This document shows, piece after piece, positions 1 through 18,268 of a stretch of DNA of 18,490 nt (positions are counted from its first letter, which is position 1; each line of letters begins with the position of its first letter). The notes beneath the pieces are model-generated. The model was not told where the DNA came from and did not search any database. It saw nothing but the letters and a program-made list of their open reading frames with translations. A program made the translations under genes and the position numbers. This DNA comes from a virus (taxonomy: Duplodnaviria; Heunggongvirae; Uroviricota; Caudoviricetes), in IMG/VR virus record IMGVR_UViG_2563366965_000003, positions 1 through 18,490 of that record; one strand, written 5' to 3'.

Positions 1-204
1 CTAAATCAGTAAGTTGGCAGCATCACCATCTACGCCTTCCCTGAAAAATAGTTTCCCAGCCACTCCACATTTACTTGAAGGGCAGGTATGTCTTTCCGTT
101 CGATCAACAACAACCCAAAGTCTTGATTCATTTTTTGCCATTGCCGATGGTATTTGAGATGAGACAATTAACGTAAGCCCTAAAATTAGTATTGATTTTT
201 TCAT
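1..204 (-). CDS. small secreted protein of unknown function (prophage accessory gene)
   Basis: 67-aa ORF with stop at 1-3; N-terminus MKKSILILGLTLIVSSQIPSAMA resembles a Sec signal peptide; no family recognised. Confidence 0.4.
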   Translation of the reverse strand: MKKSILILGLTLIVSSQIPSAMAKNESRLWVVVDRTERHTCPSSKCGVAGKLFFREGVDGDAANLLI

Positions 205-502
205 TGTAATTTCCTTTTACTTTTTACAAAGCGTTTAATCATGGCTGATTATCTTTAAGCGTAGTAACAGCCTTGTGCGAAACATGTTACCAAATCGCCA
301 TTTCAGTGTATCCGCAGTTAGGCTGCCACTTCAAGGATTCCTAATTACATGGTACGTAAGCGTAAAATCCCGTTGGTTGTCGGGTAATAACTCTGATCAA
401 ATCTCCCTTGTCTTTTGCTCTTACGTATGCAGCTCTTGTGTATTCAACCCAGGCCTCCAGTTCAGCAATACGCTTACTTCCATCCGAGATAACACCTTCT
501 AC

Positions 503-754
503 TCACGCTGCTCGTTGAGTTTTGATTTTTGCTGTCTCCAGCTCAACACGCAGTTTCCTCACCGTTAGCGCAATATCCTCGTTCTCCTGGTCGCGGCGTT
601 TGATGTACTGCTGGTTTCTTTCCCGTTCATCCAGCAGTGTCAGCACAATCGATGGTGTTACCAGCTCATGGAAAAGGTCCGCGTCAAATCCCCAGTTGTC
701 ATGCATTGCCTGCTCTGCCGCTTCACGCAGTGCCTGAGAGTGAATTACGCTCAC
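503..754 (-). CDS. hypothetical phage early-left protein
   Basis: 83-aa ORF; start overlaps stop of upstream minus-strand gene by 4 nt (751-754), consistent with operon coupling; charged, helical-looking sequence; no family recognised. Confidence 0.45.
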   Translation of the reverse strand: MSVIHSQALREAAEQAMHDNWGFDADLFHELVTPSIVLTLLDERERNQQYIKRRDQENEDIALTVRKLRVELETAKIKTQRAA

Positions 755-972
755 TTCGAACCTCTCTGTTTACTGATAAGTTCCAGATCCTCCTGGCAAC
801 TTGCACAAGTCCGACAACCCTGAACGGCCAGGCGTCTTCGTTCATCTATCGGATCGCCACACTCACAACAATGAGTGGCAGATATAGCCTGGTGGTTCAG
901 GCGGCGCATTTTTATTGCTGTGTTGCGCTGTAATTCTTCAATTTCTGATGCTGAATCAATGATGTCTGCCAT
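751..972 (-). CDS. TraR/DksA-family C4 zinc-finger protein (lambda Orf73-like)
   Basis: 73 aa; C-terminal CxxC-(17)-CxxC motif (CCECGDPIDERRRLAVQGCRTCASC) typical of TraR/DksA zinc fingers; same length and position class as lambda orf73 (from memory). Confidence 0.7.
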   Translation of the reverse strand: MADIIDSASEIEELQRNTAIKMRRLNHQAISATHCCECGDPIDERRRLAVQGCRTCASCQEDLELISKQRGSK

Positions 973-1021
973 CTTTCATTAATCCCTGAATTGTTGGTTA
1001 ATACGCTTGAGGGTGAATGCG

Positions 1022-1048
1022 AATAATAAAAAAGGAGCCTGTAGCTCC
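1022..1048 (-). terminator. putative intrinsic terminator (minus strand) in early-left operon
   Basis: GGAGC/GCTCC 5-bp stem (1034-1038 / 1044-1048) followed on the minus strand by TTTTTTATTATT (plus-strand A-run 1022-1033). Confidence 0.35.
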
Positions 1049-1070
1049 CTGATGATTTTGCTTTTCATGT

Positions 1071-1352
1071 TCACCGTTCCTTAAAAACGCCGTTTAACAT
1101 GCCGATTGCTAGACTTAAATGAGTCGGTGTGAATCCCATCAGCGTTACCGTTTCGCGGTGCTTCTTCAGTACGCTACGGCAAATGTCATCGACGTTTTTA
1201 TCCGGAAACTGCTGTCTGGCTTTTTTGATTTCAGAATTAGCCTGACGGGCAATGCTGCGAAGGGCGTTTTCCTGCTGAGGTGTCACTGAACAAGCCCCAT
1301 GTCGGCAAGCATAAGCACACAGAATATGAAGCCCGCTGCCAGAAAAATGCAT
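1071..1352 (-). CDS. hypothetical phage protein
   Basis: 93-aa ORF between orf63-like and Orf73-like genes, same strand; true start uncertain; no family recognised. Confidence 0.4.
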   Translation of the reverse strand: MHFSGSGLHILCAYACRHGACSVTPQQENALRSIARQANSEIKKARQQFPDKNVDDICRSVLKKHRETVTLMGFTPTHLSLAIGMLNGVFKER

Positions 1353-1362
1353 TCAGTGGTTG

Positions 1363-1554
1363 TCATACCTGGTCTCTCTCATCTGCTTCTGCTTTCGCCA
1401 CCATCATTTCCAGTTTTTGTGAAAGGGATGTGGCTAACGTATGAAATTCTTCGTCTGTTTCTACTGGTATTGGCACAAACCTGATTCCAATTTGAGCAAG
1501 GCTATGTGCCATCTCGATACTCGTTCTTAACTCAACAGGAGATGCTTTGTGCAT
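1363..1554 (-). CDS. lambda orf63-like small protein
   Basis: 63 aa; overlaps downstream orf60a-like ORF by 28 nt, the overlap I recall for lambda orf63/orf60a; sits immediately downstream of exo as in lambda. Confidence 0.55.
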   Translation of the reverse strand: MHKASPVELRTSIEMAHSLAQIGIRFVPIPVETDEEFHTLATSLSQKLEMMVAKAEADERDQV

Positions 1555-1709
1555 ACAGCCCCTCGTTTATTATTTATCTCCTCAGCCAGCCGCTGTGCTT
1601 TCAGTGGATTTCGGATAACAGAAAGGCCGGGAAATACCCAGCCTCGCTTTGTAACGGAGTAGACGAAAGTGATTGCGCCTACCCGGATATTATCGTGAGG
1701 ATGCGTCAT
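1527..1709 (-). CDS. lambda orf60a-like small protein
   Basis: 60 aa from the second Met of the listed ORF ([14 protein letters not shown]...); ATG overlaps exo TGA stop as ATGA; position matches lambda orf60a. Confidence 0.55.
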
Positions 1710-2386
1710 CGCCATTGCTCCCCAAATACAAAACCAATTTCAGCCAGTGCCTCGTCCATTTTTTCGATGAACACCGGCACCATCTCGTCAAAACTCGCCA
1801 TGTACTTTTCATCCCGCTCAACCACGACATAATGCGGTCCTTCACGCTTCATACGCGGGTCATAGTTGGCAAAGTACCAGGCATCTTTTCGTGTCACCCA
1901 CATGCTGTACTGCACCTGGGCCATGTAAGCCGACTTTATGGCCTCGAAACCACCGAGCCGGAACTTCATGAAATCCCGGGAGGTAAACGGGCATTTCAGC
2001 TCAAGGCCATTGCCGTCACTGCATAAACCATCGGGAGAGCAGGCGGTGCGCATACTTTCGTCGCGATAGATGATCGGGGATTCAGTAACATTCACGCCGG
2101 AAGTGAATTCAAACAGGGTTCTGGCGTCGTTCTCGTACTGTTTTCCCCATGCCAGCGCCTTAGCATTAACTTCCGGAGCCACACCGGTGCAAACCTCAGC
2201 CAGCAGGGTGTGGAAGTAGGACATTTTCATGTCAGGCCACTTCTTTCCTGAGCGGGGCTTGGCTATCACGTTGTGAACTTCTGAAGCGGTGATGACGCCG
2301 AGCCGTAATTTGTGCCATGCATCATCCCCCTGTTCGACAGCTCTCACGTCGATCCCGGTACGCTGCAGGATAATGTCCGGTGTCAT
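1706..2386 (-). CDS. exo: lambda exonuclease (Red-alpha), intact
   Basis: 226 aa, essentially identical to lambda Exo as I recall it ([65 protein letters not shown]...). Confidence 0.95.
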
Positions 2387-2829
2387 GCTGCCACCTTCTG
2401 CTCAGTGGCTTTCTGTTTCAGGAATCCAAGAGCTTTCACTGCTTCGGCCTGTGTCAGTTCTGACGATGCGCGAATGTCGCGGCGAAATATCTGGGAACAG
2501 AGCGGCAATAAGTCGTCATCCCATGTTTTGTCCAGGGCAATCAGCAGAGTGTTAATCTCCTGCATGGTTTCATCGTTAACCGGAGTAATGTCGCGTTCCG
2601 GCTGACGTTCTGCGGTGTATGCGGTATTTTCGACAATGCGCTCGGCTTCATCCTTGTCATAGATACCAGCAAATCCGAAGGCCAGACGGGCACACTGAAT
2701 CATGGCTTTATGCCGTAACATCCGTTTGGGATGCGACTGCCACGGCCCCGTAATTTCTCTGCCTTCGCGGGTTTTGAATGGTTCGCGGCGGCATTCATCC
2801 ATCCACTCGGTAACGCAGATCGGATGATT
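2383..2829 (-). pseudogene. bet: 5'-truncated bet (Red-beta) remnant; only about the C-terminal 149 codons remain
   Basis: Translation from 2829 downward matches the lambda Bet C-terminal half (..NHPICVTEWMDECRREPFKTREGREITGPWQSHPKRMLRHKAMIQCARLAFGFAGIYDKDEAERIVEN..); similarity stops at about 2830 and an in-frame stop lies at 2839-2841; N-terminal annealing domain absent. Confidence 0.85.
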
Positions 2830-2988
2830 ACCGGTTCGCTACCAGGGAAGAACGGGAAGGAAAGGTGAGCACGAATCTGATTTTCAAGGAGTGTCGCCAG
2901 AGTGCCGCGATGAAGCGGGTGTTGGCATTTTATCGCGGCAATTTTCAATAGACTATGTACATAAAAATATCATTTTTTTAATACATGT

Positions 2989-3180
2989 CTAATTATTGGA
3001 CGAAATTGGTTTTTGCTTTGGTTTAGTTAGCCTAGCAATCAAGCCAGAGGCAATAATGATGATCCAAGCAATTTGATGCAATGCTACTCCAATATAAGAA
3101 CCTTTATAGATAATAAAGGCATAGATCGCTAGAAACGAAATAAATATCCATAACGAAAGTTGATAAATTTTGGCGCGCAT
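2989..3180 (-). CDS. small two-helix hydrophobic membrane protein
   Basis: 63 aa from ATG at 3180 (MRAKIYQLSLWIFISFLAIYAFIIYKGSYIGVALHQIAWIIIIASGLIARL...); two hydrophobic stretches; AT-rich; divergent from the lipoprotein operon. Confidence 0.35.
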   Translation of the reverse strand: MRAKIYQLSLWIFISFLAIYAFIIYKGSYIGVALHQIAWIIIIASGLIARLTKPKQKPISSNN

Positions 3181-3436
3181 ATTTAATCCAATCAATCAGA
3201 AAGACGAGTAATCATAGAGGTACTATCACCCGGGTAACTATTGCTATTATGAACGGATAGGATAGAGGCTTCAATAACATATGCATCAAGTATGATGGAA
3301 TATGTAGGTGAAAATGACTTGTGTCAAATTTGTGGAAATGAGTACCATGTTTCTCTGAAATTGATGTCGTTAATGGCTAGTGATAGTGAACTTTTTTACT
3401 TTATAATTCCTTTGGTTATAACAATAAGGTAAATTT

Positions 3437-3997
3437 ATGAAGAAGATAATATTATTAGCCATGATTATTGGTTCTTTAACAGGTTGCGCTAGTGTGCCAC
3501 CATTGAATTTTTCAACACCTAACGTGGGAGTTAGCCAGAAAAAAATAGATGCTGAAATTAAGTCATTAACGGTATCACTTGCTCGTCCAGATGAGCAGAA
3601 AGGGGATATCACTGCTGGTATGGAGGCTATAACTCCAATTTGGCGTGAATCTTTGCAGGAAGCACTCGACCGAATGACTATTTTTCGTGATAGTTCACCA
3701 AATACGGTTAGCTTAAATGTTAAAGTGTTGGCTCTTGACGTTCCTGCTTTTGGTGTTTCAATGACAACTAAAGCAATTGCAAGGTATGAAATAATCAACC
3801 GTGCGAATGGTGATATTATATATACGCAGGATATTGAGTCTACCGGTACTGTTCCAGCCAGTTACGCATTCTACGGTATTGTTCGAGCACGCGAATCTGT
3901 TAATCGCGCGGTGCAAAACAACATAACGCAGTTCTTGCAAGCATTAGAAAGTGTTGATCTTTCTCGTCCAATGTTTCCTGTTAGGGTAGCTAAATGA
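3437..3997 (+). CDS. lipoprotein of unknown function, likely outer-membrane targeted
   Basis: 186 aa; signal peptide plus lipobox MKKIILLAMIIGSLTG-C (Cys17, +2 Ala); stop overlaps next gene start (ATGA); faint pattern resemblance to YajG-type lipoproteins, from memory only. Confidence 0.7.
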   Translation: MKKIILLAMIIGSLTGCASVPPLNFSTPNVGVSQKKIDAEIKSLTVSLARPDEQKGDITAGMEAITPIWRESLQEALDRMTIFRDSSPNTVSLNVKVLALDVPAFGVSMTTKAIARYEIINRANGDIIYTQDIESTGTVPASYAFYGIVRARESVNRAVQNNITQFLQALESVDLSRPMFPVRVAK

Positions 3998-4446
3998 AGC
4001 GATTATTCGTAATTGCTCCACTCTTAGTGTTGGTTGGATGCGCACAAAATATATCGCCAAATAGTTATTCTGTTGGCTCTGTGGGCATGGTTAATCGAAC
4101 TATCGCTGGTACAGTTATTAGTGCTAGGGGGGTTGATATCAGTGGGACTTCCGCGTTAGGCGGGACTGCTGGGGCTGCCGTGGGGGCAACCGCTGGTTCT
4201 GCGCTTGGTGGGGGAGTTCGTTCTAATATCGTTGGTGCCGTTGGTGGTGCAGTCATTGGTGGTATTGCCGGGGCAGCAATCGAATCTTCAGCAACAAAAC
4301 AAACAGGCATGGAATATGTTGTCGAAACTGAGAATGGGAATTTAATGACCATTGTTCAAGGCAAAGATCCGTTATTTACTCAAGGAAGTAAGGTCCTTGT
4401 TTTATACGGAAACCCTTCTCGCATAATAACAGACCCGCGTCACTAA
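3994..4446 (+). CDS. SlyB-like glycine-zipper outer-membrane lipoprotein (PCP / 17-kDa-antigen family)
   Basis: 150 aa; lipobox LLVLVG-C (Cys16); long Gly/Ala-rich zipper GTSALGGTAGAAVGATAGSALGGGVRSNIVGAVGGAVIGGIAGAAI followed by a beta-rich C-terminal domain; overall architecture parallels E. coli SlyB. Confidence 0.75.
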   Translation: MKRLFVIAPLLVLVGCAQNISPNSYSVGSVGMVNRTIAGTVISARGVDISGTSALGGTAGAAVGATAGSALGGGVRSNIVGAVGGAVIGGIAGAAIESSATKQTGMEYVVETENGNLMTIVQGKDPLFTQGSKVLVLYGNPSRIITDPRH

Positions 4447-4636
4447 CATACCTTTTGATTTTGTAAAATCAATTCGTAATAATAAAGTCATCGGAGCTTG
4501 AACAACTCCGGTGACTTCTGCGCTAAACGGGGACGTTTATGCGCACATACAATCCAAACTCTCTTCTCCCTTCACAGATGCAGAAATGCACCTGCGATTT
4601 TTTGCATCCAGCGTCTGACCTCTGCGGAGGTGAAGC

Positions 4637-5092
4637 GTGAACCTACCACAAGATGGCATCAAACTGCATCGCGGTAACTTCACCGCTATCGGCCAGCAGA
4701 TCCAGCCTTATCTGGAGGACGGAAAATGCTTTCGCATGGTGCTTAAACCGTGGCGTGAGAAACGCAGTCTTTCCCAGAATGCACTCAGCCACATGTGGTA
4801 CAGCGAAATCAGTGAATACCTCATCAGCAGGGGGAAATCGTTCGCTACCGCAGCATGGGTAAAAGATGCTCTCAAACACACATACCTCGGTTATGAAACC
4901 AAGGACCTGGTTGATGTCGTAACCGGCGAAATCACTACTATCCAGTCGTTACGCCATACCTCCGATCTTGATACCGGAGAGATGTATATCTTCCTGTGTA
5001 AGGTTGAAGCCTGGGCGGTGAATATTGGCTGCCACCTGACTATTCCGCAGAGCTGCGAGTTCCAGCAGCTCCGCGACAAACAGGAGGCGTAA
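4637..5092 (+). CDS. ninB: NinB-family recombination protein (DLP12 YbcN-like)
   Basis: 151 aa; GTG start after GGAGG; conserved NinB core ([21 protein letters not shown]); first gene of a coupled nin cluster. Confidence 0.8.
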
Positions 5093-5262
5093 TGGCTACA
5101 CCGCTTATTCGTGTCATGAACGGACACATCTACAGAGTACCAAATCGTCGTAAGCGTAAACCGGAGCTGAAGCCTTCCGAAATACCAACACTGTTCGGAT
5201 ATACCGCCAGCCTGGTTGATAAAAAATGGTTGCGACTGGCAGCAAGGAGGAGTCATGGCTGA
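5092..5262 (+). CDS. ninE: NinE-like small protein
   Basis: 56-codon ORF read by hand ([56 protein letters not shown]); ATG overlaps ninB stop (TAATG); below the ORF-track length cutoff. Confidence 0.6.
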   Translation: MATPLIRVMNGHIYRVPNRRKRKPELKPSEIPTLFGYTASLVDKKWLRLAARRSHG

Positions 5263-5545
5263 TTTGAGAAAAGCAGCGCGTGGTCGGGAATGCCAGGTAA
5301 GAATCCCTGGCGTATGTAATGGCAACCCTGAAACGTCTGTACTGGCACATATCCGGCTGACTGGATTGTGCGGCACCGGTACGAAACCGCCAGACCTGAT
5401 TGCCACCATTGCATGTTCTGCCTGCCACGACGAAATCGACCGCCGCACACATTTTGTCGATGCTGCATATGCAAAAGAATGCGCGCTGGAAGGTATGGCG
5501 AGAACACAGGTTATCTGGCTGAAAGAGGGGGTTATTAAGGCGTGA
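5255..5545 (+). CDS. DUF1364-type Cys-rich nin-region protein (DLP12 YbcO-like)
   Basis: 96 aa from ATG at 5255 preceded by AGGAGG; Cys-rich ([11 protein letters not shown]...CSACHDEID); overlaps ninE and rusA. Confidence 0.7.
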
Positions 5546-5904
5546 ATACCTACAGCATCACATTACCCTGGCCTCCGAGCAATAATCGCTATTACCGCCA
5601 TAATCGCGGGCGCACACACATCAGCGCAGAAGGGCAGGCATACCGCGATAACGTCACCCGAATCATTAAAAACGCAATGCTGGATATCGGCCTGGCTATG
5701 CCAGTGAAAATCCGTATTGAGTGCCACATGCCGGATCGCCGTCGCCGTGACCTGGATAATCTGCAAAAAGCCGCTTTTGACGCACTCACCAAAGCAGGTT
5801 TCTGGCTGGATGATGCTCAGGTCGTTGATTACCGCGTTGTGAAGATGCCTGTTACCAAAGGTGGGAGGCTGGAACTGACCATCACCGAAATGGGGAATGA
5901 ATGA
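5542..5904 (+). CDS. rusA: RusA Holliday-junction resolvase
   Basis: 120 aa matching E. coli RusA nearly throughout ([26 protein letters not shown]...[31 protein letters not shown]). Confidence 0.9.
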
Positions 5905-6041
5905 TGTTTGAGTTTAATATGGCAGAACTTCTTCGCCACCGCTGGATGCGCCTGCGCTTATATCGTTTCCCCAGTTCTGTTTTGACCGATTACCGAATAC
6001 TGAGGAATTACGCCAAAACCCTGACAGGAGCAGGAGTATGA
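5901..6041 (+). CDS. ylcG: YlcG-like small protein
   Basis: 46-codon ORF ([46 protein letters not shown]); ATG overlaps rusA stop (ATGA); same position as ylcG in DLP12. Confidence 0.5.
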
Positions 6042-6126
6042 AGTCAGAGATAACAATCAACTAATACTGTTTTATTGATTTTTGCTTGTAATTGGCGTTC
6101 TGGTCTGATTTTTGTGGAGTAAGTTG

Positions 6127-6510
6127 ATGCGTGATATTCAGATGGTTCTTGAGCGTTGGGGAGCGTGGGCGGCTAATAATCATGAAGATGTGACCTGGTC
6201 GTCCATTGCCGCCGGTTTTAAGGGATTAATTACTTCAAAAGTAAAATCTCGCCCGCAATGTTGTGACGATGACGCGATGATCATTTGCGGGTGCATGGCC
6301 CGTCTGAAAAAGAACAACAGCGATTTGCACGATTTATTAGTAGATTATTATGTAGTCGGTATGACATTCATGTCACTGGCAGGTAAGCATTGCTGCTCTG
6401 ATGGTTATATCGGGAAAAGGTTACAGAAGGCTGAGGGTATAATTGAAGGGATGTTAATGGCATTAGATATCCGGTTAGAGATGGATATCGTTGTTAATAA
6501 CTCTAATTAA
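6127..6510 (+). CDS. quuD: late-gene antiterminator Q (DLP12 QuuD-like)
   Basis: 127 aa from ATG at 6127 with GGAG 7 nt upstream (ORF track starts at TTG 6112); Cys-rich zinc-binding region ([13 protein letters not shown]...HCCSDG); directly follows rusA/ylcG as in lambdoid late-control modules. Confidence 0.75.
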
Positions 6511-6542
6511 TATGCCAATTGTTTACTAAAAATTATTAAAAA

Positions 6543-6560
6543 TGGGGCGTTGAGACGCCC
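6543..6560 (-). terminator. stem-loop; probable intrinsic terminator for the convergent porin gene
   Basis: GGGGCGT/ACGCCCC 7-bp stem; on the minus strand followed by ATTTTTAATAATTTTT; two further hairpins at 6628-6649 and 6650-6683 lie between Q and the porin stop. Confidence 0.4.
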
Positions 6561-6698
6561 CCAAAAATAAAGGGTAATATATAACAGAAGGTTTATATAG
6601 TTAGAAGCAAGGTTGTGCTCCTAAAGGAAGTGGCTTGAGGGAGCCACTTATATGTTGGGGAGGCAAAGCCTCCCGCAACATATCTTTTAGTAATCAAA

Positions 6699-7781
6699 TT
6701 AGAACTGGTAAACCATACCTACAGCAACGATATCATCGGTAGCAACGCCAGATGCTTTCGTGAAATCGCTCTTATCAATCAGGTTGATTTTGTAATCAAC
6801 AAAAGTGGACATATTTTTGTTGAAGTAATAGGTTGCACCTACATCAATATATTCAACCAGGTCCTGATCACCCCACGCACCCAAGTCTTTTCCTTTAGAT
6901 TGCAGGTAAGCAACGGACGGACGCAGACCGAAGTCGAACTGATATTGTGCAACTACTTCGAAGTTTTGTGCTTTGTTGGCAATATGGTTATTACCAAAAA
7001 CAGTCATGTTCTGGGTTTCAGAATAGGTGGTAGCCAGATAGATGTTGTTCGCATCATATTTCAGACCAGCTGCCCATACTTCAGCATTTTGACCAGATGC
7101 ATTCAGGCTGTTGTTACCGTAGATAACCTGATTATTAGTGCGGTCAGATTTAGCATAGGTTGCACCTACACCGAATCCTTCATACTCATAAGTAGTGGAG
7201 AAACCGAAACCATCACCATTAGCTTCAGTTACGTCAGTGCGGTCATTTTTACCCTGATACTGAGCAGCAAAGTTCAGACCATCAACCAGACCAAAGAAGT
7301 CATTGTTACGATAAGTTGCAACACCTGTGGTGCGACCAGTCATGAATACATCTGTTTGGGTCCAGGTATCGCCACCGAATTCTGGCAGAACGTCGGTCCA
7401 TGCACCAATATCGTATGCTACACCGTAGTTACGGCCATAATCGATGGAGCCGTAGTCACCGAATTTCAGGCCAGCGAAGGCAAGACGGGTTTTATCTTTG
7501 GAGGAACCTTGAGATTCAGCGCGGTTGCCTTTGAATTCATATTCCCACTGACCGAAACCAGTCAGTTGATCGTTGATTTGGGTTTCACCTTTGAAGCCAA
7601 GACGGGCATAAGTAGTATCACCATCATCTGCATCATTAGAGGAGAAGTAGTGCTTAGCATTAACTTTCCCGTACAGATCCAGCTTGTTACTGTCTTTATT
7701 ATAAATTTCAGCTGCCTGAGCAGACATCGCCATCAGTACTGATGCAGCTACAGCAGAAATTGCCACTGTTAATTTTTTCAT
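6699..7781 (-). CDS. nmpC: general porin, OmpC/NmpC/Lc family (prophage lysogenic-conversion porin), apparently intact
   Basis: 360 aa from ATG at 7781 ([23 protein letters not shown] signal peptide, AEIYNKD mature start, C-terminal ...VGMVYQF); sits between Q and the lysis cassette as nmpC does in DLP12 and lc in PA-2. Confidence 0.85.
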
Positions 7782-8207
7782 CGTGAGCCCTTTTTTTGAA
7801 CTATTATTAAAAAATGATGTCACTGCGCGATAAATATTCATCTAATCAATGTGATTATTTCAAGATGTAAGTTTTGGTTTCTCATTTGATTTGTGAAGTA
7901 GATCTCTATTTTTATCTGAACTTTTTCTATCGAATCCTATTCATGGCTCTTGGCTGAATAAAAATAAATCTATTAGCCAATTTATATTAATGGCTGTTAT
8001 TTATGAGTGCTCTATAATTTGAAGATTCAATTTAAACCAGCTAAAAATAACGCTGGAAATTATTTGTTGGTTATTTGTTGAGATTTGCTTATGTATTTGT
8101 AGTGGTGTTTTCAATACTCGGTAGCATTCTCGCAAATATCATTTAGTGGTTTACGTACGTAAAAAATTGGTTATGCTGTTAAGAGTGGTTACTTCGTCAC
8201 ACAGCTT

Positions 8208-8236
8208 AAACCCGCCGTCGAGCGGGTTTTTCCATT
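8208..8236 (+). terminator. intrinsic terminator upstream of the lysis cassette (tR'-like)
   Basis: AAACCCGC cgtcga GCGGGTTTTTCCATTTTTT: GC-rich stem followed by T-runs on the plus strand, about 130 nt upstream of the holin start. Confidence 0.45.
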
Positions 8237-8368
8237 TTTTGAGTCTCGATATTAGCTGATAACCCAATACCTGAGTTATTCACTGACTCCGAGTCTGTTA
8301 CGTTTCTGCTTTTTTGCGATACGTTGTATTCCCTCAATTTACACCCGCTTTGTCTGCGAGGTGGGGTT

Positions 8369-8584
8369 ATGAAATCCATGGATAAGTTAACAACGGGTGT
8401 CGCCTATGGCACCTCAGCAGGTAGTGCCGGTTACTGGTTTTTACAGCTGCTCGATAAAGTCACGCCCTCACAGTGGGCAGCAATAGGTGTGCTGGGTAGC
8501 CTGGTATTTGGCCTGCTGACGTACCTGACAAACCTTTATTTCAAGATTAAAGAAGATAAGCGCAAGGCTGCGAGAGGTGAATAA
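8369..8584 (+). CDS. essD: class II pinholin (phage 21 S21 / DLP12 EssD type) with dual-start motif
   Basis: 71 aa ([26 protein letters not shown]...[15 protein letters not shown]); Met1-Lys-Ser-Met4 dual start; GAGGTGGGG upstream; two TMDs. Confidence 0.85.
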
Positions 8585-9081
8585 TGCCTCCATCATTACG
8601 AAAAGCCGTTGCTGCTGCTATTGGTGGCGGAGCAATTGCTATAGCATCAGTGTTAATTACTGGCCCAAGTGGTAACGATGGTCTGGAAGGTGTCAGCTAC
8701 GTACCATACAAAGATATCGTTGGCGTATGGACTGTATGTCACGGACACACCGGAAAAGACATCATGCTCGGTAAAACGTATACCAAAGCAGAATGCAAAG
8801 CACTCTTGAATAAAGACCTTGCCACTGTCGCCAGACAAATTAACCCGTACATCAAAGTCGATATACCGGAAACAACGCGCGGCGCTCTTTACTCATTCGT
8901 TTACAACGTGGGTGCTGGCAATTTCAGAACATCGACGCTTCTTCGCAAAATAAACCAGGGCGATATCAAAGGCGCATGTGATCAGCTACGTCGCTGGACA
9001 TATGCTGGCGGTAAGCAATGGAAAGGTCTCATGACTCGTCGTGAGATTGAGCGTGAAATCTGTTTGTGGGGTCAGCAATGA
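8584..9081 (+). CDS. rrrD: SAR endolysin (phage 21 R21 / DLP12 RrrD-type lysozyme)
   Basis: 165 aa; Gly/Ala-rich weakly hydrophobic N-terminal signal-anchor-release domain ([18 protein letters not shown]) then lysozyme domain; ATG overlaps holin stop (TAATG). Confidence 0.85.
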
Positions 9082-9539
9082 ACAGAGTAACCGCGATTAT
9101 CTCCGCTCTGGTTATCTGCATCATCGTCTACCTGTCATGGGCTGTTAATCATTACCGTGATAACGCCATTACCTACAAAGCCCAGCGCGACAAAAATGCC
9201 AGAGAACTGAAGCTGGCGAACGCGGCAATTACTGACATGCAGATGCGTCAGCGTGATGTTGCTGCGCTCGATGCAAAATACACGAAGGAGTTAGCTGATG
9301 CGAAAGCTGAAAATGATGCTCTGCGTGATGATGTTGCCGCTGGTCGTCGTCGGTTGCACATCAAAGCAGTCTGTCAGTCAGTGCGTGAAGCCACCACCGC
9401 CTCCGGCGTGGATAATGCAGCCTCCCCCCGACTGGCAGACACCGCTGAACGGGATTATTTCACCCTCAGAGAGAGGCTGATCACTATGCAAAAACAACTG
9501 GAAGGAACCCAGAAGTATATTAATGAGCAGTGCAGATAG
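9078..9539 (+). CDS. rzpD: Rz i-spanin (lambda type)
   Basis: 153 aa from ATG at 9078 ([29 protein letters not shown]...), matching lambda Rz except a few residues; N-terminal TMD. Confidence 0.85.
9298..9480 (+). CDS. rzoD: Rz1 o-spanin lipoprotein, embedded in the +1 frame of Rz
   Basis: 60 aa ([24 protein letters not shown]...[16 protein letters not shown]); lipobox VVG-C, proline-rich; wholly inside the Rz reading frame. Confidence 0.8.
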
Positions 9540-9570
9540 AGTTGCCCATATCGATGGGCAACTCATGCAA

Positions 9571-9864
9571 TTATTGTGAGCAATACACACGCGCTTCCAG
9601 CGGAGTATAAATGCCTAAAGTAATAAAACCGAGCAATCCATTTACGAATGTTTGCTGGGTTTCTGTTTTAACAACATTTTCTGCGCCGCCACAAATTTTG
9701 GCTGCATCGACAGTTTTCTTCTGCCCAATTCCAGAAACGAAGAAATGATGGGTGATGGTTTCCTTTGGTGCTACTGCTGCCGGTTTGTTTTGAACAGTAA
9801 ACGTCTGTTGAGCACATCCTGTAATAAGCAGGGCCAGCGCAGTAGCGAGTAGCATTTTTTTCAT
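9571..9864 (-). CDS. bor: Bor lipoprotein (serum-resistance lysogenic-conversion protein)
   Basis: 97 aa (MKKMLLATALALLITGCAQQTFTVQNKPAAVAPKETITHHFFVSGIGQKKTVDAAKICGG...), lambda Bor as I recall it. Confidence 0.9.
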   Translation of the reverse strand: MKKMLLATALALLITGCAQQTFTVQNKPAAVAPKETITHHFFVSGIGQKKTVDAAKICGGAENVVKTETQQTFVNGLLGFITLGIYTPLEARVYCSQ

Positions 9865-10154
9865 GGTGTTATTCCCGATGCTTTTTGAAGTTCGCAGAAT
9901 CGTATGTGTAGAAAATTAAACAAACCCTAAACAATGAGTTGAAATTTCATATTGTTAATATTTATTAATGTATGTCAGGTGCGATGAATCGTCATTGTAT
10001 TCCCGGATTAACTATGTCCACAGCCCTGACGGGGAACTTCTCTGCGGGAGTGTCCGGGAATAATTAAAAACGATGCACACAGGGTTTAGCGCGTACACGT
10101 ATTGCATTATGCCAACGCCCCGGTGCTGACACGGAAGAAACCGGACGTTATGAT

Positions 10155-10688
10155 TTAGCGTGGAAAGATTTGTGTAGTGTTCTGAATGCTCTCAGTAAAT
10201 AGTAATGAATTATCAAAGGTATAGTAATATCTTTTATGTTCATGGATATTTGTAACCCATCGGAAAACTCCTGCTTTAGCAAGATTTTCCCTGTATTGCT
10301 GAAATGTGATTTCTCTTGATTTCAACCTATCATAGGACGTTTCTATAAGATGCGTGTTTCTTGAGAATTTAACATTTACAACCTTTTTAAGTCCTTTTAT
10401 TAACACGGTGTTATCGTTTTCTAACACGATGTGAATATTATCTGTGGCTAGATAGTAAATATAATGTGAGACGTTGTGACGTTTTAGTTCAGAATAAAAC
10501 AATTCACAGTTTAAATCTTTTCGCACTTGATCGAATATTTCTTTAAAAATGGCAACCTGAGCCATTGGTAAAACCTTCCATGTGATACGAGGGCGCGTAG
10601 TTTGCATTATCGTTTTTATCGTTTCAATCTGGTCTGACCTCTTTGTGTTTTGTTGATGATTTATGTCAAATATTAGGAATGTTTTCAC
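10155..10688 (-). CDS. DUF1398-type protein (DLP12 YbcV-like / lambda right-end orf)
   Basis: 177-aa ORF (alternative start at internal MQTTRPR gives about 150 aa); position after bor matches the lambda/DLP12 right end. Confidence 0.65.
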
Positions 10689-10850
10689 TTAATAGTATTG
10701 GTTGCGTAACAAAGTGCGGTCCTGCTGGCATTCTGGAGGGAAATACAACCGACAGATGTATGTAAGGCCAACGTGCTCAAATCTTCATACAGAAAGATTT
10801 GAAGTAATATTTTAACCGCTAGATGAAGAGCAAGCGCATGGAGCGACAAA

Positions 10851-11057
10851 ATGAATAAAGAACAATCTGCTGATGATCCCTCCGTGGATCTGATTCGTGT
10901 AAAAAATATGCTTAATAGCACCATTTCTATGAGTTACCCTGATGTTGTAATTGCATGTATAGAACATAAGGTGTCTCTGGAAGCATTCAGAGCAATTGAG
11001 GCAGCGTTGGTGAAGCACGATAATAATATGAAGGATTATTCCCTGGTGGTTGACTGA
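10851..11057 (+). CDS. YbcW-like small protein
   Basis: 68 aa ([40 protein letters not shown]...); position and length as DLP12 ybcW. Confidence 0.5.
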
Positions 11058-11221
11058 TCACCATAACTGCTAATCATTCAAACTATTTAGCCTGTGACAG
11101 AGCCAACACGCAGTCTGTCACTGTCAGGAAAGTGGTAAAACTGCAACTCAATTACTGCAATGCCCTCGTAATTAAGTGAATTTACAATATCGTCCTGTTC
11201 GGAGGGAAGAACGCGGGATGT

Positions 11222-11416
11222 TCATTCTTCATCACTTTTAATTGATGTATATGCTCTCTTTTCTGACGTTAGTCTCCGACGGCAGGCTTCAATGACCCAG
11301 GCTGAGAAATTCCCGGACCCTTTTTGCTCAAGAGCGATGTTAATTTGTTCAATCATTTGGTTAGGAAAGCGGATGTTGCGGGTTGTTGTTCTGCGGGTTC
11401 TGTTCTTCGTTGACAT
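11222..11416 (-). CDS. YlcI-like small basic protein (DUF3950)
   Basis: 64 aa (MSTKNRTRRTTTRNIRFPNQMIEQINIALEQKGSGNF...); last gene before cos as in the lambda/DLP12 right end. Confidence 0.55.
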   Translation of the reverse strand: MSTKNRTRRTTTRNIRFPNQMIEQINIALEQKGSGNFSAWVIEACRRRLTSEKRAYTSIKSDEE

Positions 11417-11559
11417 GAGGTTGCCCCGTATTCAGTGTCGCTGATTTGTATTGTCTGAAGTTGTTTTTACGTTAAGTTGATGCAGATCAATTAATACGAT
11501 ACCTGCGTCATAATTGATTATTTGACGTGGTTTGATGGCCTCCACGCACGTTGTGATAT

Positions 11560-11800
11560 GTAGATGATAATCATTATCACTTTACGGGTCCTTTCCGGTG
11601 ATCCGACAGGTTACGGGGCGGCGACCTCGCGGGTTTTCGCTATTTATGAAAATTTTCCGGTTTAAGGCGTTTCCGTTCTTCTTCGTCATAACTTAATGTT
11701 TTTATTTAAAATACCCTCTGAAAAGAAAGGAAGCGACAGGTGCTGAAAGCGTGCTTTTTGGCCTCTGTCGTTTCCTTTCTCTGTTTTTGTCCGTGGAATG
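11560..11800. other. lambda cos site (cosQ-cosN-cosB); cosN 12-nt cohesive end at 11616-11627
   Basis: ...TTACGGGTCCTTTCCGGTGATCCGACAGGTTACG | GGGCGGCGACCTCGCGGGTTTTCGCTATTTATGAAAATTTTCCGGTTTAAGGCG... reproduces the lambda right and left genome ends as I recall them. Confidence 0.85.
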
Positions 11801-11804
11801 AACA

Positions 11805-11864
11805 ATGGAAGTCAACAAAAAGCAGCTGGCTGACATTTTCGGTGCGAGTATAAGTTCTGATTAG
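11805..11864 (+). pseudogene. nu1: nu1 (terminase small subunit) stump: 16 native codons, then deletion junction and premature stop
   Basis: ATGGAAGTCAACAAAAAGCAGCTGGCTGACATTTTCGGTGCGAGTAT = MEVNKKQLADIFGASI; identity to lambda ends at about 11851, followed by SSD-stop. Confidence 0.75.
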
Positions 11865-11886
11865 CCAGGTAACACAGTGTTATGAC

Positions 11887-11914
11887 AGCCCGCCGGTTCA
11901 GGCGGGCTTTTTTG
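11887..11914 (+). terminator. intrinsic terminator immediately upstream of stf
   Basis: AGCCCGCC ggttca GGCGGGCT followed by TTTTTT. Confidence 0.55.
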
Positions 11915-11924
11915 TGGGGTGAAT

Positions 11925-14888
11925 ATGGCAGTAAAGATTTCAGGTGTACTGAAAGACAGCACAGGAAAACCGGTACAGAACTGCACAATCCAGCTGAAAG
12001 CAAAACGTAACAGCACCGCGGTGGTGGTGAACACGCTGGCCTCAGAAAATCCGGATGAAGCCGGGCGTTACAGCATGGACGTTGAGTACGGTCAGTACAG
12101 CGTTATTCTGTTGGTGGAAGGATTCCCGCCGTCACATGCCGGGACCATCACCGTGTATGAAGATTCCCGACCCGGTACGCTGAATGATTTTCTCGGTGCC
12201 ATGACGGAGGATGATGCCCGTCCGGAGGCTCTGCGCCGTTTTGAACTGATGGTGGAAGAGGTGGCGCGTAACGCGTCCGCAGTGGCACAGAACACGGCAG
12301 CCGCGAAGAAGTCAGCCAGTGATGCCAGCACATCTGCCAGTGAGGCGGCAACTCATACAACCGATGCTGCAGGCTCAGCTCGTGCCGCCAGCACGTCAGC
12401 CGGACAGGCTGCATCATCTGCTCAGTCAGCATCTTTCAGCGCAGGAACGGCATCAACAAAGGCCAGTGAAGCATCGAAAAGTGCTGCTGCTGCAGAGTCC
12501 TCAAAAAGCGCGGCAGCTACCAGTGCCGCTGCGGCGAAAACGTCAGAAACGAATGCGGCAGCGTCACAACAATCAGCAGCCACTTCTGCATCCGCCGCGA
12601 CCACGAAGGCGTCAGAAGCTGCCACCTCAGCCCGGGATGCGGCGGCCTCAAAAGAGGCGGCAAAATCATCAGAAACGAGCGCAGCCTCGAGCGCCAGTAG
12701 TGCAGCCTCCTCGGCAACAGCGGCAGGAAATTCCGCGAAGGCGGCAAAAACGTCCGAGACGAACGCTAAGTCTTCTGAGACGGCAGCAGCACAGAGTGCC
12801 TCCGCAGCAGCAGACTCAAAAACAGCGGCTGCCTCATCTGCCAGCGCCGCGTCAACAAATGCCGGGCAGGCCTCAGCCAGTGCCACCGCTGCCGGAAAGT
12901 CGGCAGAAAGCGCCGCATCATCCGCTTCAACAGCCACAACGAAGGCTGGCGAAGCCACTGAACAGGCCACGGCAGCAGCGAGGTCAGCTTCCGCAGCGAA
13001 GACATCCGAAACGAACGCGAAAGCGTCGGAAACCAGCGCAGAATCCTCAAAAACGGCTGCCGCATCGTCAGCCAGTTCGGCGGCGTCATCGGCATCATCG
13101 GCGTCTGCTTCAAAAGATGAGGCGACCAGACAGGCGTCAGCAGCGAAGGGCAGCGCCACGACGGCATCCACGAAGGCGACAGAGGCAGCTGGCAGTGCGA
13201 CGGCGGCAGCTCAGAGCAAAAGTACGGCGGAATCCGCGGCAACGCGCGCCGAGACAGCAGCAAAACGGGCAGAGGATATTGCATCCGCCGTGGCGCTTGA
13301 GGATGCGAGCACGACGAAAAAGGGGATAGTACAGCTCAGCAGTGCGACTAACAGCACTTCCGAGTCACTGGCGGCAACGCCAAAAGCCGTTAAGGCCGCG
13401 TATGAGCTGGCTAACGGGAAATACACCGCACAGGATGCAACGACAGCACAGAAAGGGATAGTTCAGCTTAGCAACGCGACCAACAGCACATCTGAAATGC
13501 TGGCGGCAACGCCAAAGTCGGTAAAGGCAGCCTATGACCTTGCTAACGGGAAATATACTGCTCAGGACGCTACGACAGCACAAAAAGGAATTGTCCAGCT
13601 CAGTAGTGCAACCAACAGCGCATCTGAAACGCTTGCCGCGACACCGAAAGCAGTGAAAGCAGCTAATGATAATGCGAATGGTCGGGTACCTTCTGCCCGT
13701 AAGGTGAATGGTAAGGCGCTTTCAGCGGATATAACACTGACGCCGAAAGATATTGGTACGCTTAACTCAACAACAATGTCATTCAGCGGTGGTGCTGGTT
13801 GGTTCAAATTAGCAACGGTAACCATGCCACAGGCGAGTTCTGTTGTTTCAATTACGTTGATTGGTGGCGCGGGATTTAACGTGGGGTCACCTCAACAGGC
13901 AGGTATATCTGAACTTGTTTTGCGTGCAGGTAATGGTAATCCGAAGGGGATTACTGGTGCTTTATGGCAGCGCACATCGACAGGGTTTACAAATTTTGCC
14001 TGGGTCAATACATCTGGTGATACTTACGATATTTACGTTGCAATCGGAAATTATGCGACTGGTGTAAATATTCAATGGGATTATACCAGTAATGCCAGCG
14101 TGACGATTCATACGTCACCAGCATATTCTGCTAATAAGCCGGAAGGGTTAACGGACGGTACAGTTTATTCACTCTATACGCCATCAGAGCAGTTTTATCC
14201 GCCTGGCGCACCAATCCCGTGGCCATCAGATACCGTTCCGTCTGGCTATGCCCTGATGCAGGGGCAGACTTTTGACAAATCTGCATACCCGAAACTTGCA
14301 GCCGCTTATCCGTCAGCCGTGATCCCTGATATGCGTGGCTGGACGATTAAGGGCAAACCCGCCAGTGGTCGTGCCGTATTGTCTCAGGAACAGGACGGCA
14401 TTAAATCGCACACCCACAGCGCCAGCGCATCCAGTACGGATTTGGGGACGAAAAACACATCGTCGTTTGATTACGGAACCAAATCCACGAATAACACCGG
14501 GGCGCATACCCATAGTATTAGCGGGACTGCAAATAGTGCCGGTGCGCACCAACACAAGAGTTCCGGTGCATTTGGTGGCACGAACACGAGCATTTTCCCT
14601 AATGGTTATACCGCGATTTCAAATCTAAGCGCGGGGATTATGAGCACAACAAGCGGTAGTGGCCAGACTCGTAATGCAGGGAAGACATCATCAGATGGTG
14701 CTCATACCCACTCGCTGTCCGGCACTGCTGCAAGCGCAGGCGCACATGCACATACTGTCGGTATTGGTGCTCATACGCACTCCGTTGCGATTGGCTCACA
14801 CGGACACACCATCACCGTTAACGCTGCTGGTAACGCGGAAAACACCGTCAAAAACATCGCATTTAACTATATTGTGAGGCTTGCATAA
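11925..14888 (+). CDS. stf: side tail fibre protein Stf (lambda-type, expanded repeats)
   Basis: 987 aa from ATG 11925 ([31 protein letters not shown]...), lambda Stf N-terminus; Ala/Ser/Thr-rich shaft; three tandem fibre repeats; His-rich tip ending ...[14 protein letters not shown]. Confidence 0.9.
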
Positions 14889-15469
14889 TGGCATTCAGAA
14901 TGAGTGAACAACCACGGACCATAAAAATTTATAATCTGCTGGCCGGAACTAATGAATTTATTGGTGAAGGTGATGCATATATTCCGCCTCATACAGGTCT
15001 GCCAGCAAACAGTACCGATATTGCACCGCCAGATATTCCGGCTGGCTTCGTGGCTGTTTTCAACAGTGATGAGTCATCGTGGCATCTTGTTGAAGACCAT
15101 CGGGGTAAAACAGTTTATGACGTGGCATCAGGGGACGCGTTATTTATTTCTGAACTCGGCTCATTACCGGAAAATGTTACCTGGTTATCCCCGGAAGGGG
15201 AGTTTCAGAAGTGGAACGGCACAGCCTGGGTGAAGGATACGGAAGCAGAAAAACTGTTCCGGATCCGGGAGGTGGAAGAAACAAAAAACAGCCTGATGCA
15301 GGTAGCCAGTGAGCATATAGCGCCGCTTCAGGATGCTGTGGATCTGGAAATCGCAACGGAGGAAGAAACCTTGTTGCTGGAAGCCTGGAAAAAGTATCGG
15401 GTATTGCTGAACCGTGTTGATACGTCAACTGCACAGGATATTGAATGGCCAGTAGCACCTATAGGGTAA
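14888..15469 (+). CDS. tfa: tail fibre assembly chaperone Tfa
   Basis: 193 aa ([54 protein letters not shown]...), lambda Tfa; ATG overlaps stf stop (TAATG). Confidence 0.9.
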
Positions 15470-15549
15470 ATTCGTAATGATTACCTAAATACGTTATTCT
15501 TTTGTTCAAAAAGTGATTTTGCTATAGATAGGGAGTATGTTCTTGGATT

Positions 15550-15584
15550 AAGAATAAAAATCGCCATGAAAGAGCTTCATGGCG
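15550..15584 (-). terminator. putative minus-strand intrinsic terminator in the tfa-att spacer
   Basis: 9-bp stem CGCCATGAA/TTCATGGCG (15562-15584); on the minus strand followed by ATTTTTATTCTT. Confidence 0.35.
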
Positions 15585-16327
15585 AGTACATAAACGTACA
15601 AAATGTGATGAAAGTAGAGTGGCGTAAGCCACTATATTAAGATGTGACAATAGCGAAGAAAAGTAAATAACATTTTATGGACGTTTAATTGTTAATTATA
15701 AAAACTAGAGTGCCCGATATTGTTTACCTTGCTTTAAAATAATGTACTCAAACCAAATTTTTGAGCTAAAAGCTCAAATAATATAAATGCAATAATAATG
15801 TTTAATAAGACAATTAGCTTGCTTTGTATTTTCATTTCGGAATACTGTTAAGTAACTTTGATGACCCTAACAATAGATCGGAATTTTCTTAGAGTCAATG
15901 GTCACTGTTTTTGCTTGCAAAGCAAATGTTTTGGTGGTTATAAGTTGTCTTAATATAGTCACGCATGCAACTTGTTCCATGCGGAGATTAAAGATTGGAA
16001 TATAACGCTAAGATGGAATTAAATTACATTTGCAATAATCAATTTATTATTACTCAATAATTACCGATATTATTATTGTAAATTAATCATTAGAGTGCAA
16101 AAAGAAATGTAACGGCAAAATAAGAGGACGATAGCTGAGAAAAAAGCGTGCTTTCCCAATCTGGGGCAAATCACGTCTGAATGACACCTGAAAACAGGTG
16201 GTAGCCTCAAGAAGGCTTGGAATATTCTTCTTTAATGTTATGTAATTCATTGATTTTTCGTGTACGATTTAAAGACATTTATTCCAAGAAAAATTTTTAA
16301 CTCTTTGATTTTTCGACTCTGTATCAT

Positions 16328-16389
16328 CGGTCTCGAAAACCGGAGTAGGGGCAACTCTACCGGGGGTTCAAATCCCCCTCTCTCCGCCA
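16328..16389 (+). tRNA. partial tRNA-Ser(CGA) (serU-like), 3' 62 nt only; probable prophage attR core
   Basis: CGGTCTCGAAAACCGGAGTAGGGGCAACTCTACCGGGGGTTCAAATCCCCCTCTCTCCGCCA = anticodon stem-loop (CGA), long variable arm, T-arm, 3' acceptor strand and CCA; no complementary 5' acceptor strand (GGAGAGA) upstream. Confidence 0.7.
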
Positions 16390-16964
16390 CTTTATCAATG
16401 ACTTATCTCCCGACTTCCCGCCTTGCTTTTCCTAAACAGAACAATCGTAGAATATTCTTGAAGGGTTAGATCGTCACTGTTTTCTGTTCGATACTGTGAC
16501 ATTCAGCACTTGATTCGCTATGGATCTGACAGGAAGGTTTTGAGCGAAAATTTGCAGTTATTCAGTCGTTTTCTTATCGGTCACCATTATTCTTTTAGAC
16601 ATTGATCCTACAAAGCTGCCGCAAAGTTGGTGGTGGGAACTGAAGTTGCGTAGAGAAGGGGTCAATACCCGGAGGCAAACATGGGCTGGCAAAAGTGTAG
16701 CGGTATTAGGCGCAGCTATTTAGCCTAGTTATGTTTTATGAAAACTTGATATCATATAAGTGTCTTACTTATTGGCTGTAAATAAGTTTTTCCTAAGGAA
16801 TTGTTTCTTGAGTATCATTTGTAACTGTAACGGAATTTATAATCCTTTGCTTTATTGTTACGGTATTTTTTATCACACCCTATTTTTTATGTGGTTTTTT
16901 ATACTGAAGTTTGGCAAAGTGAACTTTATATGCATATACTTCATCCTGGTTTCAGTTAAGTTGG

Positions 16965-18229: not shown

Positions 18230-18268
18230 ACAGACACCTCAGAGTCATTTAAGATGGCTTAAAGAGAG

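Follow-up and report, generated by a model that had tools for sequence, protein, structure and literature searches.

What are two overlapping lipoprotein genes doing in the early region of a lambda-like prophage, and how did they come to be there? The question is raised by IMG/VR virus record IMGVR_UViG_2563366965_000003, of which positions 1 to 18,490 (the whole analysed stretch of 18,490 nucleotides, here called the window) come from a defective, lambda-like prophage with a guanine-plus-cytosine (GC) content of 0.453. An earlier note on this DNA had described an AT-rich block between a remnant of the recombinase gene bet and the gene ninB, and its open reading frames (ORFs), their overlap and its base composition were all found as described. 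This islet (~2928-4450) has a GC content of 0.394, as compared with ~0.50 in its flanks, and of 0.324 in a 256-bp spacer (3181-3436). It carries two lipoprotein genes, here called A (GC 0.405) and B (GC 0.472). The feature is real and well delimited. It is one phage-borne example of a two-lipoprotein module that is both widespread and uncharacterised. We propose, with a probability of about one half, that A and B form an outer-membrane complex which is expressed in the lysogen and reinforces or insulates its envelope. Feature coordinates are collected in Table 1.

As for the location, the islet had been thought to take the place expected for the immunity and replication region. This was refuted by two relatives. 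In Escherichia phage PhiR30_1 (recorded host Escherichia coli C) the genes are arranged as exo-bet-gam-kil-...-cI-cro-cII-O-P-ren-(small ORF, A, B)-ninB-ybcO-rusA-Q-porin-S-R-Rz-bor-terminase, and the prophage of E. coli O178:H19 strain 2012C-4431, in which all early genes are annotated, has the same order with an identical cassette. In both, the islet lies between ren and ninB, after cI-cro-cII-O-P. Homology with other ren-bearing phages ends at ~2926-2927, inside ren, and similarity to phages such as 82, 4A7 and Perceval restarts at ~4450-4454, i.e. 4-8 bases past the stop codon of B; the boundaries are tight around the genes. The phage backbone restarts there with a promoter-like site, at exactly the place where the record of phage 82 (X92588) has a putative -35/-10, and the right flank continues beyond ybcN/ninB with ybcO, rusA and Q. 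Related phages have the two flanking genes side by side, so that the cassette (~2927 to ~4450) is extra DNA, and its base composition deviates from that of its surroundings; these features agree with the structural definition of a moron (PMC3594210). Judged from these comparisons, a lambda-like temperate phage acquired the islet horizontally as a moron (an add-on cassette) at its ren-ninB junction.

The 1.6-kb islet was detected once per genome in 280 of 5,426 complete E. coli genomes (~5%), always on the chromosome and at least 99% identical, with both ORFs intact in every one of the 280. Among 50,697 GenBank phage records, PhiR30_1 was the only one to contain it. A scan of IMG/VR, whose contigs are predicted viral sequences that may extend into host DNA, added 20 E. 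coli-type contigs with an identical cassette and 16 others.

The apparent proximity of the islet to bet is explained by a deletion. The bet remnant, which carries the label 'recombinase RecT, partial' in prophages nearly identical to this one, can be aligned with PhiR30_1 as far as position 4169 in bet, where the sequence passes into ren; the genes from gam to P and two-thirds of ren, on its 5' side, have been lost. At the join the two parental sequences have an exact ATT in common and match at seven of nine bases. From the alignment with PhiR30_1 and this minimal homology, an illegitimate deletion beside the islet can therefore be deduced, an event separate from cassette insertion. Only 19 of the 280 cassette-bearing E. 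coli genomes have the same junction. The flanks assigned previously, bet remnant on the left and ninB on the right, were both confirmed, but the 3' remnant of ren between the bet remnant and the islet had been overlooked.

Are the two genes functional, and are they a unit? The genes overlap in an ATGA, in which the ATG of B (3994-3996) runs into the TGA of A (3995-3997); this bears out the suggested translational coupling, and both products begin with a lipoprotein signal. The N-terminus of A is MKKIILLAMIIGSLTGC, with MKKIILLAMIIGSLTG preceding C17 in the lipobox LTGC; that of B is MKRLFVIAPLLVLVGC, with MKRLFVIAPLLVLVG preceding C16 in the lipobox LVGC, followed by A-Q-N. Like members of the SlyB family, B thus combines a signal peptide with a lipobox lacking Asp at +2. 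By the Lol sorting rule, lipoproteins without Asp at +2 proceed to the outer membrane, and since both A and B have Ala there, an outer-membrane location is predicted for each. In comparisons with enterobacterial homologues, nonsynonymous divergence (dN) was 0.11-0.29 and synonymous sites were saturated; where synonymous divergence (dS) could be computed, dN/dS was 0.06-0.08. This substitution pattern indicates that both lipoprotein genes are real and under purifying constraint.

Two small overlapping envelope genes superficially recall Rz/Rz1, and one could imagine that they serve as a spanin pair or a lysis regulator. We regard this as extremely unlikely. Genes for a holin, a lysozyme and Rz are present elsewhere in the prophage (8.3-9.5 kb), A and B are both lipoproteins and neither is an inner-membrane protein of Rz type, the cassette sits in the early/immunity region, and chromosomes commonly carry the pair without any lysis genes close to it.

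The proposal that B is SlyB-like was upheld by profile, sequence and fold comparisons. A profile built from 88 homologues of B aligned with the solved E. coli SlyB structure 7ojf at E=2.1e-14 (residues 2-149 on 3-154), BLASTP against K-12 SlyB gave 33% identity over the whole length (E=7e-13), and in a Foldseek search with the predicted model 7ojf was the top and sole significant PDB match (E=1.4e-7, probability 1.00). The Gly/Ala-rich zipper spans approximately residues 55-101 and precedes a beta-rich C-terminus; the AlphaFold2 (AF2) model consists of a beta segment, helices 55-70 and 75-101 forming a hairpin, and a C-terminal beta domain. The alignment with SlyB (E. coli b1641; 7ojf/7ojg; PhoPQ-regulated) runs from the lipobox to the C-terminus and includes the N-terminal beta segment, the zipper hairpin and the C-terminal beta domain, so that the similarity in sequence and predicted fold is full-length. 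Against PF13488, B scored 16.9 bits, below the cut-off of 25; many close homologues carry precomputed matches to this family or to PF05433. B also matches phrog_13877 (E=1.4e-98), whose function is unassigned in PHROGs. By homology, B is a full-length but distant SlyB paralogue. It differs from canonical slyB in its locus, which in K-12 lies between anmK and slyA whereas B lies between ren and ninB of a prophage. It is carried in addition to the host slyB, is mobile, and nearly always follows its partner gene A, while canonical slyB has no such partner. The slyB paralogues recently described in Yersinia are much closer to SlyB (62-75% identical) and are likewise without a described partner gene (10.64898/2026.06.08.730324).

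Another glycine-zipper lipoprotein of the outer membrane, YfgH, aligned with B in hhalign (96%), yet over the N-terminus and zipper only, whereas the C-terminal domain of B matches SlyB. In K-12, yfgI (DUF5384) begins 15 nt downstream of yfgH (locus L122, 5793-6866), which could constitute another zipper-lipoprotein pair, with its order reversed relative to A-B. This candidate parallel was rejected, as YfgI is unrelated to A (hhalign 1.6%).

Protein A was harder to place. At E<=0.1 it had no match in Pfam, and NCBIfam and PADLOC gave none that was usable, with IglE appearing at noise level only; its profile matched the sequences of solved structures at chance level only. It does match phrog_12521 (E=1.7e-124), again with function unassigned in PHROGs. 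Its predicted model is confident and contains two helices packed on an antiparallel sheet behind an N-terminal lipid anchor, as in LptE-like, PelC and DUF330 proteins. The structural matches of the model, with their scores, were XCC0632 (DUF330, PqiC family; 13.2), PelC (10.4), HpaA (10.1), LptE (9.8), PqiC (9.3), CsgG (9.2), TraT (7.0) and LpoB (6.1), and sequence identity of A to all eight was 7-15%. Among viral structures in BFVD no close relative was found; one match, a weak one, was CsgG-like, and those to Erf/Rad52 were spurious. Based on the model, A is a member of an uncharacterised lipoprotein family with the core fold of LptE, PelC, PqiC, CsgG and TraT. Lipoproteins of this type sit at, or form part of, outer-membrane assemblies. 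An exhaustive profile search with A recovered 978 representative clusters with E<=1e-3, of which 274 reached E<=1e-10. Across the homologues, PPLNFSVPNVGVS directly after the lipidated Cys is almost invariant, and so are the residues that form a polar face on the C-terminal helix (R150, E153, S154, R157, Q160, N162). Such conservation of a lipoprotein tether is unusual and probably points to a fixed binding partner.

Newer RefSeq/PGAP (Prokaryotic Genome Annotation Pipeline) records name A 'YajG family lipoprotein'. The corresponding model PF03923 (YajG, Lipoprotein_16) did not match A, yet matches K-12 YajG at 3.4e-52, and NCBIfam gave no YajG match either; an hhalign comparison of the A profile with the single YajG sequence yielded a probability of 73% (E=3e-5, 120 columns). 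The fold and the lipid anchor of A are those of outer-membrane lipoproteins of the LptE, PelC, PqiC, CsgG and YajG type, at the low identities given above. In Klebsiella, Xanthomonas, Bordetella, Lysobacter and Stenotrophomonas, and also in older records of A itself, many homologues bear the label 'UDP-N-acetylglucosamine acyltransferase', which is without support from sequence or fold and appears to be a propagated misannotation. Our finding corrects this widespread mislabelling.

With XCC0632, PelC, LptE and CsgG among its best structural matches, A might act as an accessory of export or transport, serving a lipid or polysaccharide route like LptE, PelC, CsgG or PqiC, with B as its anchor. 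One Xanthomonas locus, where the pair adjoins a pgaABCD-type operon, fits this idea. However, the pga neighbourhood is found in one locus and does not recur, no transporter, MCE, barrel-protein or glycosyltransferase gene is conserved beside the pair, neither ampG nor lptD, pqiAB or pel genes adjoin A, and the identity to the families in question is within the range stated. We consider a transport role improbable.

What recurs beside A is B. Of 75 genome loci, ~68 (~90%) have B immediately after A, with a gap of 0-120 nt and often an overlap, and so do 13 of the 16 viral loci from outside E. coli. ORF calling in GC-rich loci was crude; the key adjacencies were rechecked by tblastn. Clustering of all neighbouring ORFs revealed no third conserved gene. 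One cluster of neighbours from 17 loci was rejected as an antisense artefact lying over B in GC-rich genomes. The two proteins are conserved to a similar degree (mean column identity 61% for A and 67% for B), and their distance matrices correlate (r=0.845, Mantel p=0.001). From this, A and B look like obligate partners. Exceptions to the pairing appear degenerate, and comprise one zipper-less B and two Photorhabdus loci where A lies beside a repeat array. The former, found in a single metagenome-assembled genome (MAG; L069 6555-6884), is a 109-aa B homologue that keeps both beta segments and lacks the zipper hairpin, a natural variant that could be informative. In the latter (L053 7437-8049 and L057 6962-7321), A is without B and is followed by short-period repeats (...VHCRTGSLE...) that are CRISPR-array-like in appearance.

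Homologues of the pair at ~60-70% identity were found in Gammaproteobacteria (Klebsiella oxytoca, Serratia, Edaphovirga, Xanthomonas, Stenotrophomonas, Luteimonas) and Betaproteobacteria (Bordetella, Pusillimonas, Cupriavidus, Massilia, Comamonadaceae), as well as in Alphaproteobacteria and in MAGs assigned to Verrucomicrobiota, Acidobacteriota, Nitrospinales and Desulfobulbaceae. A locus in an actinomycete assembly titled Nocardiopsis yanglingensis (L034) has the same layout and identities as several Stenotrophomonas loci, which suggests contamination of the assembly. The contexts include, besides the pga operon, toxin-antitoxin/transposase islands and a fixed site in K. oxytoca. On average, the pair is 4.9 GC points under its flanks, and often 10-20 points under. 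In plasmids it is essentially absent, with three weak partial matches. The pair is common in bacterial chromosomes at sites without phage genes in the vicinity, and is thus not phage-specific. B and its homologues can be regarded as a distinct and widespread subfamily of SlyB-type proteins that is horizontally mobile and nearly always accompanied by a dedicated LptE-fold partner.

It might be objected that the pair is a neutral passenger, i.e. an ordinary pair of accessory genes that came from the chromosome of an enterobacterium resembling Klebsiella or Serratia, travels with one phage lineage and does nothing for either phage or lysogen. The nearest homologues outside E. coli, 83% and 75% identical, do occupy a fixed chromosomal site of K. 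oxytoca between SRAP/umuDC and cold-shock genes, the near-identity of all 280 E. coli copies fits one recent acquisition, and the cassette persists in defective prophages. Against this, the ORFs are intact in all of those copies, purifying selection is strong, the cassette edges are tight, and the pair has entered phages more than once. Nine loci, four bacterial (L027 from Stenotrophomonas, L047 from Xanthobacteraceae, L063 from Alphaproteobacteria, L076 from Sphingomonadaceae) and five viral (L109, L111-L113, L117), have a same-strand gene for a cI-type repressor (HTH_3 + Peptidase_S24) whose end lies 46-194 nt before A. Four others (L035, L108, L114, L116) have a convergent repressor within 1 kb, with a CII (CP76) gene beyond. 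In L105-L107 (~73% identity) the pair is inside a tail operon, with the tape-measure gene on one side and the minor tail genes gpM/gpL on the other. The repressors of different groups are only ~28-35% identical and hence belong to different phages. Taken together, the comparisons indicate that phages have captured the pair independently, at least three times, at different insertion sites and beside unrelated repressors, and we find the passenger explanation quite unlikely. Recurrence in other phages also settles the earlier note's concern that the block might have no phage association elsewhere; its other concern, that A and B might be well-characterised housekeeping lipoproteins, was likewise dispelled, as neither closely matches a characterised housekeeping protein.

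Repeated pick-up by different temperate phages suggests that the cassette probably changes the cell envelope of its carriers. The question is then whether this change is directed against competitors. The main rival to our proposal is dedicated superinfection or surface exclusion, in which a complex of A and B would ring, mask or lock receptors, or plug the envelope against phages, colicins and conjugation, analogously to the action of Cor/Llp on FhuA or to TraT. The independent captures occurred at positions typical of exclusion genes, next to cI or in the tail operon by the tape-measure gene (PMC3594210). Pairs directly downstream of cI-type repressor genes resemble lambda cI-rexAB in arrangement. 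The exclusion moron gp15 of HK97, a captured host envelope gene turned exclusion factor, is also located by the tape-measure gene (PMC3594210), on its other side than the pair in L105, and provides a precedent. SlyB rings can enclose outer-membrane proteins, as in the structure 7ojf, entitled 'SlyB13-BamA' in the PDB. In general terms, lambda Bor/Lom, phi80/N15 Cor, T5 Llp, HK97 gp15 and cI-rexAB are like the cassette in being add-ons with deviant GC content, candidate promoters, envelope products and chromosomal homologues. The cassette differs from these morons in having two components and no kinship to them in sequence or structure. Neither A nor B resembles Cor, Llp, Bor or any PADLOC model; PHROGs gave only families of unknown function, Pfam Lambda_Bor hit only the separate bor gene, and BFVD contained no close structural relative of A. 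Identity of ~60% across proteobacterial classes under purifying selection fits a generic target better than an arms race over receptors, many carriers are without phage context, and the pair occurs in a single GenBank phage record. A generic target (a lipid, lipopolysaccharide (LPS) or the partner protein itself) is therefore favoured over a specific phage receptor by the high cross-class conservation and by the large number of loci without phage genes. Dedicated exclusion is possible in our opinion, although clearly on the unlikely side.

A parallel for such a role, and also for the envelope complex that we prefer, is TraT, in which an LptE-like core and two transmembrane helices build a hollow outer-membrane decamer responsible for surface exclusion, serum resistance and, as reported, some protection from phages (PMC12658005). 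It has been co-opted from chromosomes by mobile elements (PMC12658005). The same two elements are united in one chain, together with a beta hairpin, in TraT (F/IncF; 9e2v, 9fs5), while A and B are separate polypeptides. The Pfam model for TraT (PF05818) matched neither A nor B, and Foldseek comparison of B with TraT was not significant (E=0.13). We treat the likeness to TraT as an analogy. Pursuing it, A and B may be imagined as a two-component, TraT-like helical ring, with B as the wall and A as a periplasmic collar, deployed by temperate phages of several bacterial classes from their immunity regions as a receptor-independent barrier to superinfection, colicins and conjugation. Such a ring is a speculative and rather doubtful version; if true, it would represent a new class of exclusion by mobile elements and a second family of helical outer-membrane complexes.

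Returning to envelope reinforcement, which we prefer, our proposal builds on observed gene structure, homologies, insertion site, synteny and repeated phage capture; we infer from them the outer-membrane location, complex formation, lysogen expression and phenotype. SlyB rings of glycine-zipper hairpins span the membrane, enclose lipid nanodomains and outer-membrane proteins, and are protective under stress (10.64898/2025.12.22.696046; 10.64898/2026.06.08.730324). According to the model, A and B would constitute a two-gene operon of outer-membrane lipoproteins acting together. By homology with SlyB, the hairpins of B would be expected to insert in the outer membrane and form a ring around lipid patches or outer-membrane proteins. 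A, coupled to B in amount, probably docks on the periplasmic face of B and adapts or regulates the assembly. Expression from the repressed prophage is probable, from the cassette's own candidate promoter in the window and from a position downstream of cI in other phages. Sites next to cI, as in lambda cI-rexAB, and beside the tape-measure gene are where genes expressed in lysogens are typically found. The outer membrane of the lysogen would be reinforced or remodelled, leading to tolerance of envelope stress, antimicrobial peptides or serum, and reduced access for other phages might arise as a side effect.

Several observations weigh against this proposal. The identity between B and SlyB is only 33%, so that ring formation is extrapolated; the model of B is moderately confident (predicted local distance difference test, pLDDT, 73), and its Pfam match to Rick_17kDa_Anti (PF05433, E=3e-4) reaches 21.1 bits, below the cut-off of 24.2. 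The fold of A is closer to DUF330/PqiC and PelC than to TraT. No fusion of A with B was seen among seven of the longest A-domain proteins, which were read by eye, with no tool comparison with B; their extensions are diverse, and B-like ones were not among them. Many A-B loci are chromosomal and have no phage genes nearby, and the benefit may thus be a general bacterial one, unrelated to lysogeny. In this AT-rich DNA, promoter-like and terminator-like sites are not more numerous than expected from shuffled sequences, and those upstream of A and S (Table 1) are regarded as candidates only. Finally, a literature search turned up no paper mentioning A or B.

SlyB-type rings are a recently recognised stabiliser of the outer membrane under stress, so far described as single-gene and chromosomally regulated. 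The subfamily described here is carried by several unrelated temperate phages. Should the two proteins indeed stabilise or insulate the outer membrane, they would represent a new type of lysogenic conversion, relevant to resistance to serum, antimicrobial peptides and phages, and a tractable two-protein system for studying helical lipoprotein assembly.

Table 1. Features of the window discussed in the text (positions in the window; aa, amino acids)
Feature	Position	Strand	Remarks
bet (RecT-family recombinase), C-terminal remnant	2383..2829	-	Pfam RecT E=3e-9 on ORF 2383-2802
bet::ren deletion junction	2821..2829	.	window 2829 = PhiR30_1 4169 (bet); window 2818 = PhiR30_1 10532 (ren)
ren 3' remnant	~2829..2951	+	~40 codons; 'protein ren, partial' in L001, L124; continues from full-length ren in PhiR30_1 and 2012C-4431
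Inserted cassette (moron)	2928..4450	.	DNA missing from other lambdoid phages having ren and ninB
Small hydrophobic ORF S	2989..3180 (ATG, 63 aa) or 2989..3195 (TTG)	-	two hydrophobic stretches/predicted helices; coding status uncertain
Candidate promoters facing S	3327-3299 and 3274-3246	-	upstream of S; divergent sites span 3246..3407
Candidate promoter for A	3380..3407	+	GTGATA-16-TATAAT, sigma-70-like, 10/12; 30 nt upstream of A
Lipoprotein A	3437..3997	+	186 aa; lipobox LTGC, Cys17, Ala at +2; predicted LptE/PelC/PqiC-type alpha/beta fold
Lipoprotein B	3994..4446	+	150 aa; lipobox LVGC, Cys16, Ala at +2; predicted glycine-zipper helical hairpin; distant SlyB paralogue by homology
Promoter-like site of orf33-ybcN(ninB)-rusA block	4455..4483	+	TTGATT-17-AATAAT; phage backbone restarts here
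Terminator-like site	4579..4596		candidate from sequence scan
ybcN/ninB-type gene, right flank	4637..5092	+	Pfam NinB E=5.8e-5; annotated ybcN or NinB in related records
Porin gene	6699..7841	-	intact 380-aa ORF, Porin_1 E=4e-153
bor	9571..9864		Lambda_Bor E=2e-30
Tail-fibre ORF	11919..14888		989 aa; phage_tail_N, fibre repeats, Collar domain
Tail-fibre assembly gene	14888..15469		directly after tail-fibre ORF

The islet contains one further ORF, here called S, previously described as a small two-helix membrane protein. An ORF with two hydrophobic stretches is indeed present, but it is restricted to E. coli and lies outside the conserved module. It is annotated as hypothetical in PhiR30_1 and left without annotation by PGAP. 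A search of 5.8 billion proteins returned only five near-identical E. coli clusters as its relatives, and S was not found at any locus outside E. coli that has the A-B pair. S as a third component was rejected, this being an ORFan. An Rfam search of the islet gave no match to a non-coding RNA.

To the right of the islet, record X92588 also annotates an inverted-repeat 'regulator-binding site' and orf33 upstream of orf151 (ybcN/ninB), the counterpart of which lies at 4455-4640 in the window. The presence of a porin gene and of bor in the same prophage, noted previously, was borne out (Table 1). The porin gene is annotated as intact also in A14 and 2012C-4431, but in strain JNQH498 as a pseudogene, interrupted by a stop codon. 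Further downstream (11805-14888), the prophage has a second large internal loss. In near-identical prophages a remnant of nohD (DNA-packaging) lies directly against a partial tail-fibre gene, without head or tail-shaft genes in between, and the end points of the deletion vary by strain. Beyond the tail-fibre assembly gene, a gene for an AraC-family regulator (16965-17717, plus strand; HTH_AraC/HTH_18) could be either cargo of the prophage or the point where flanking host DNA begins.

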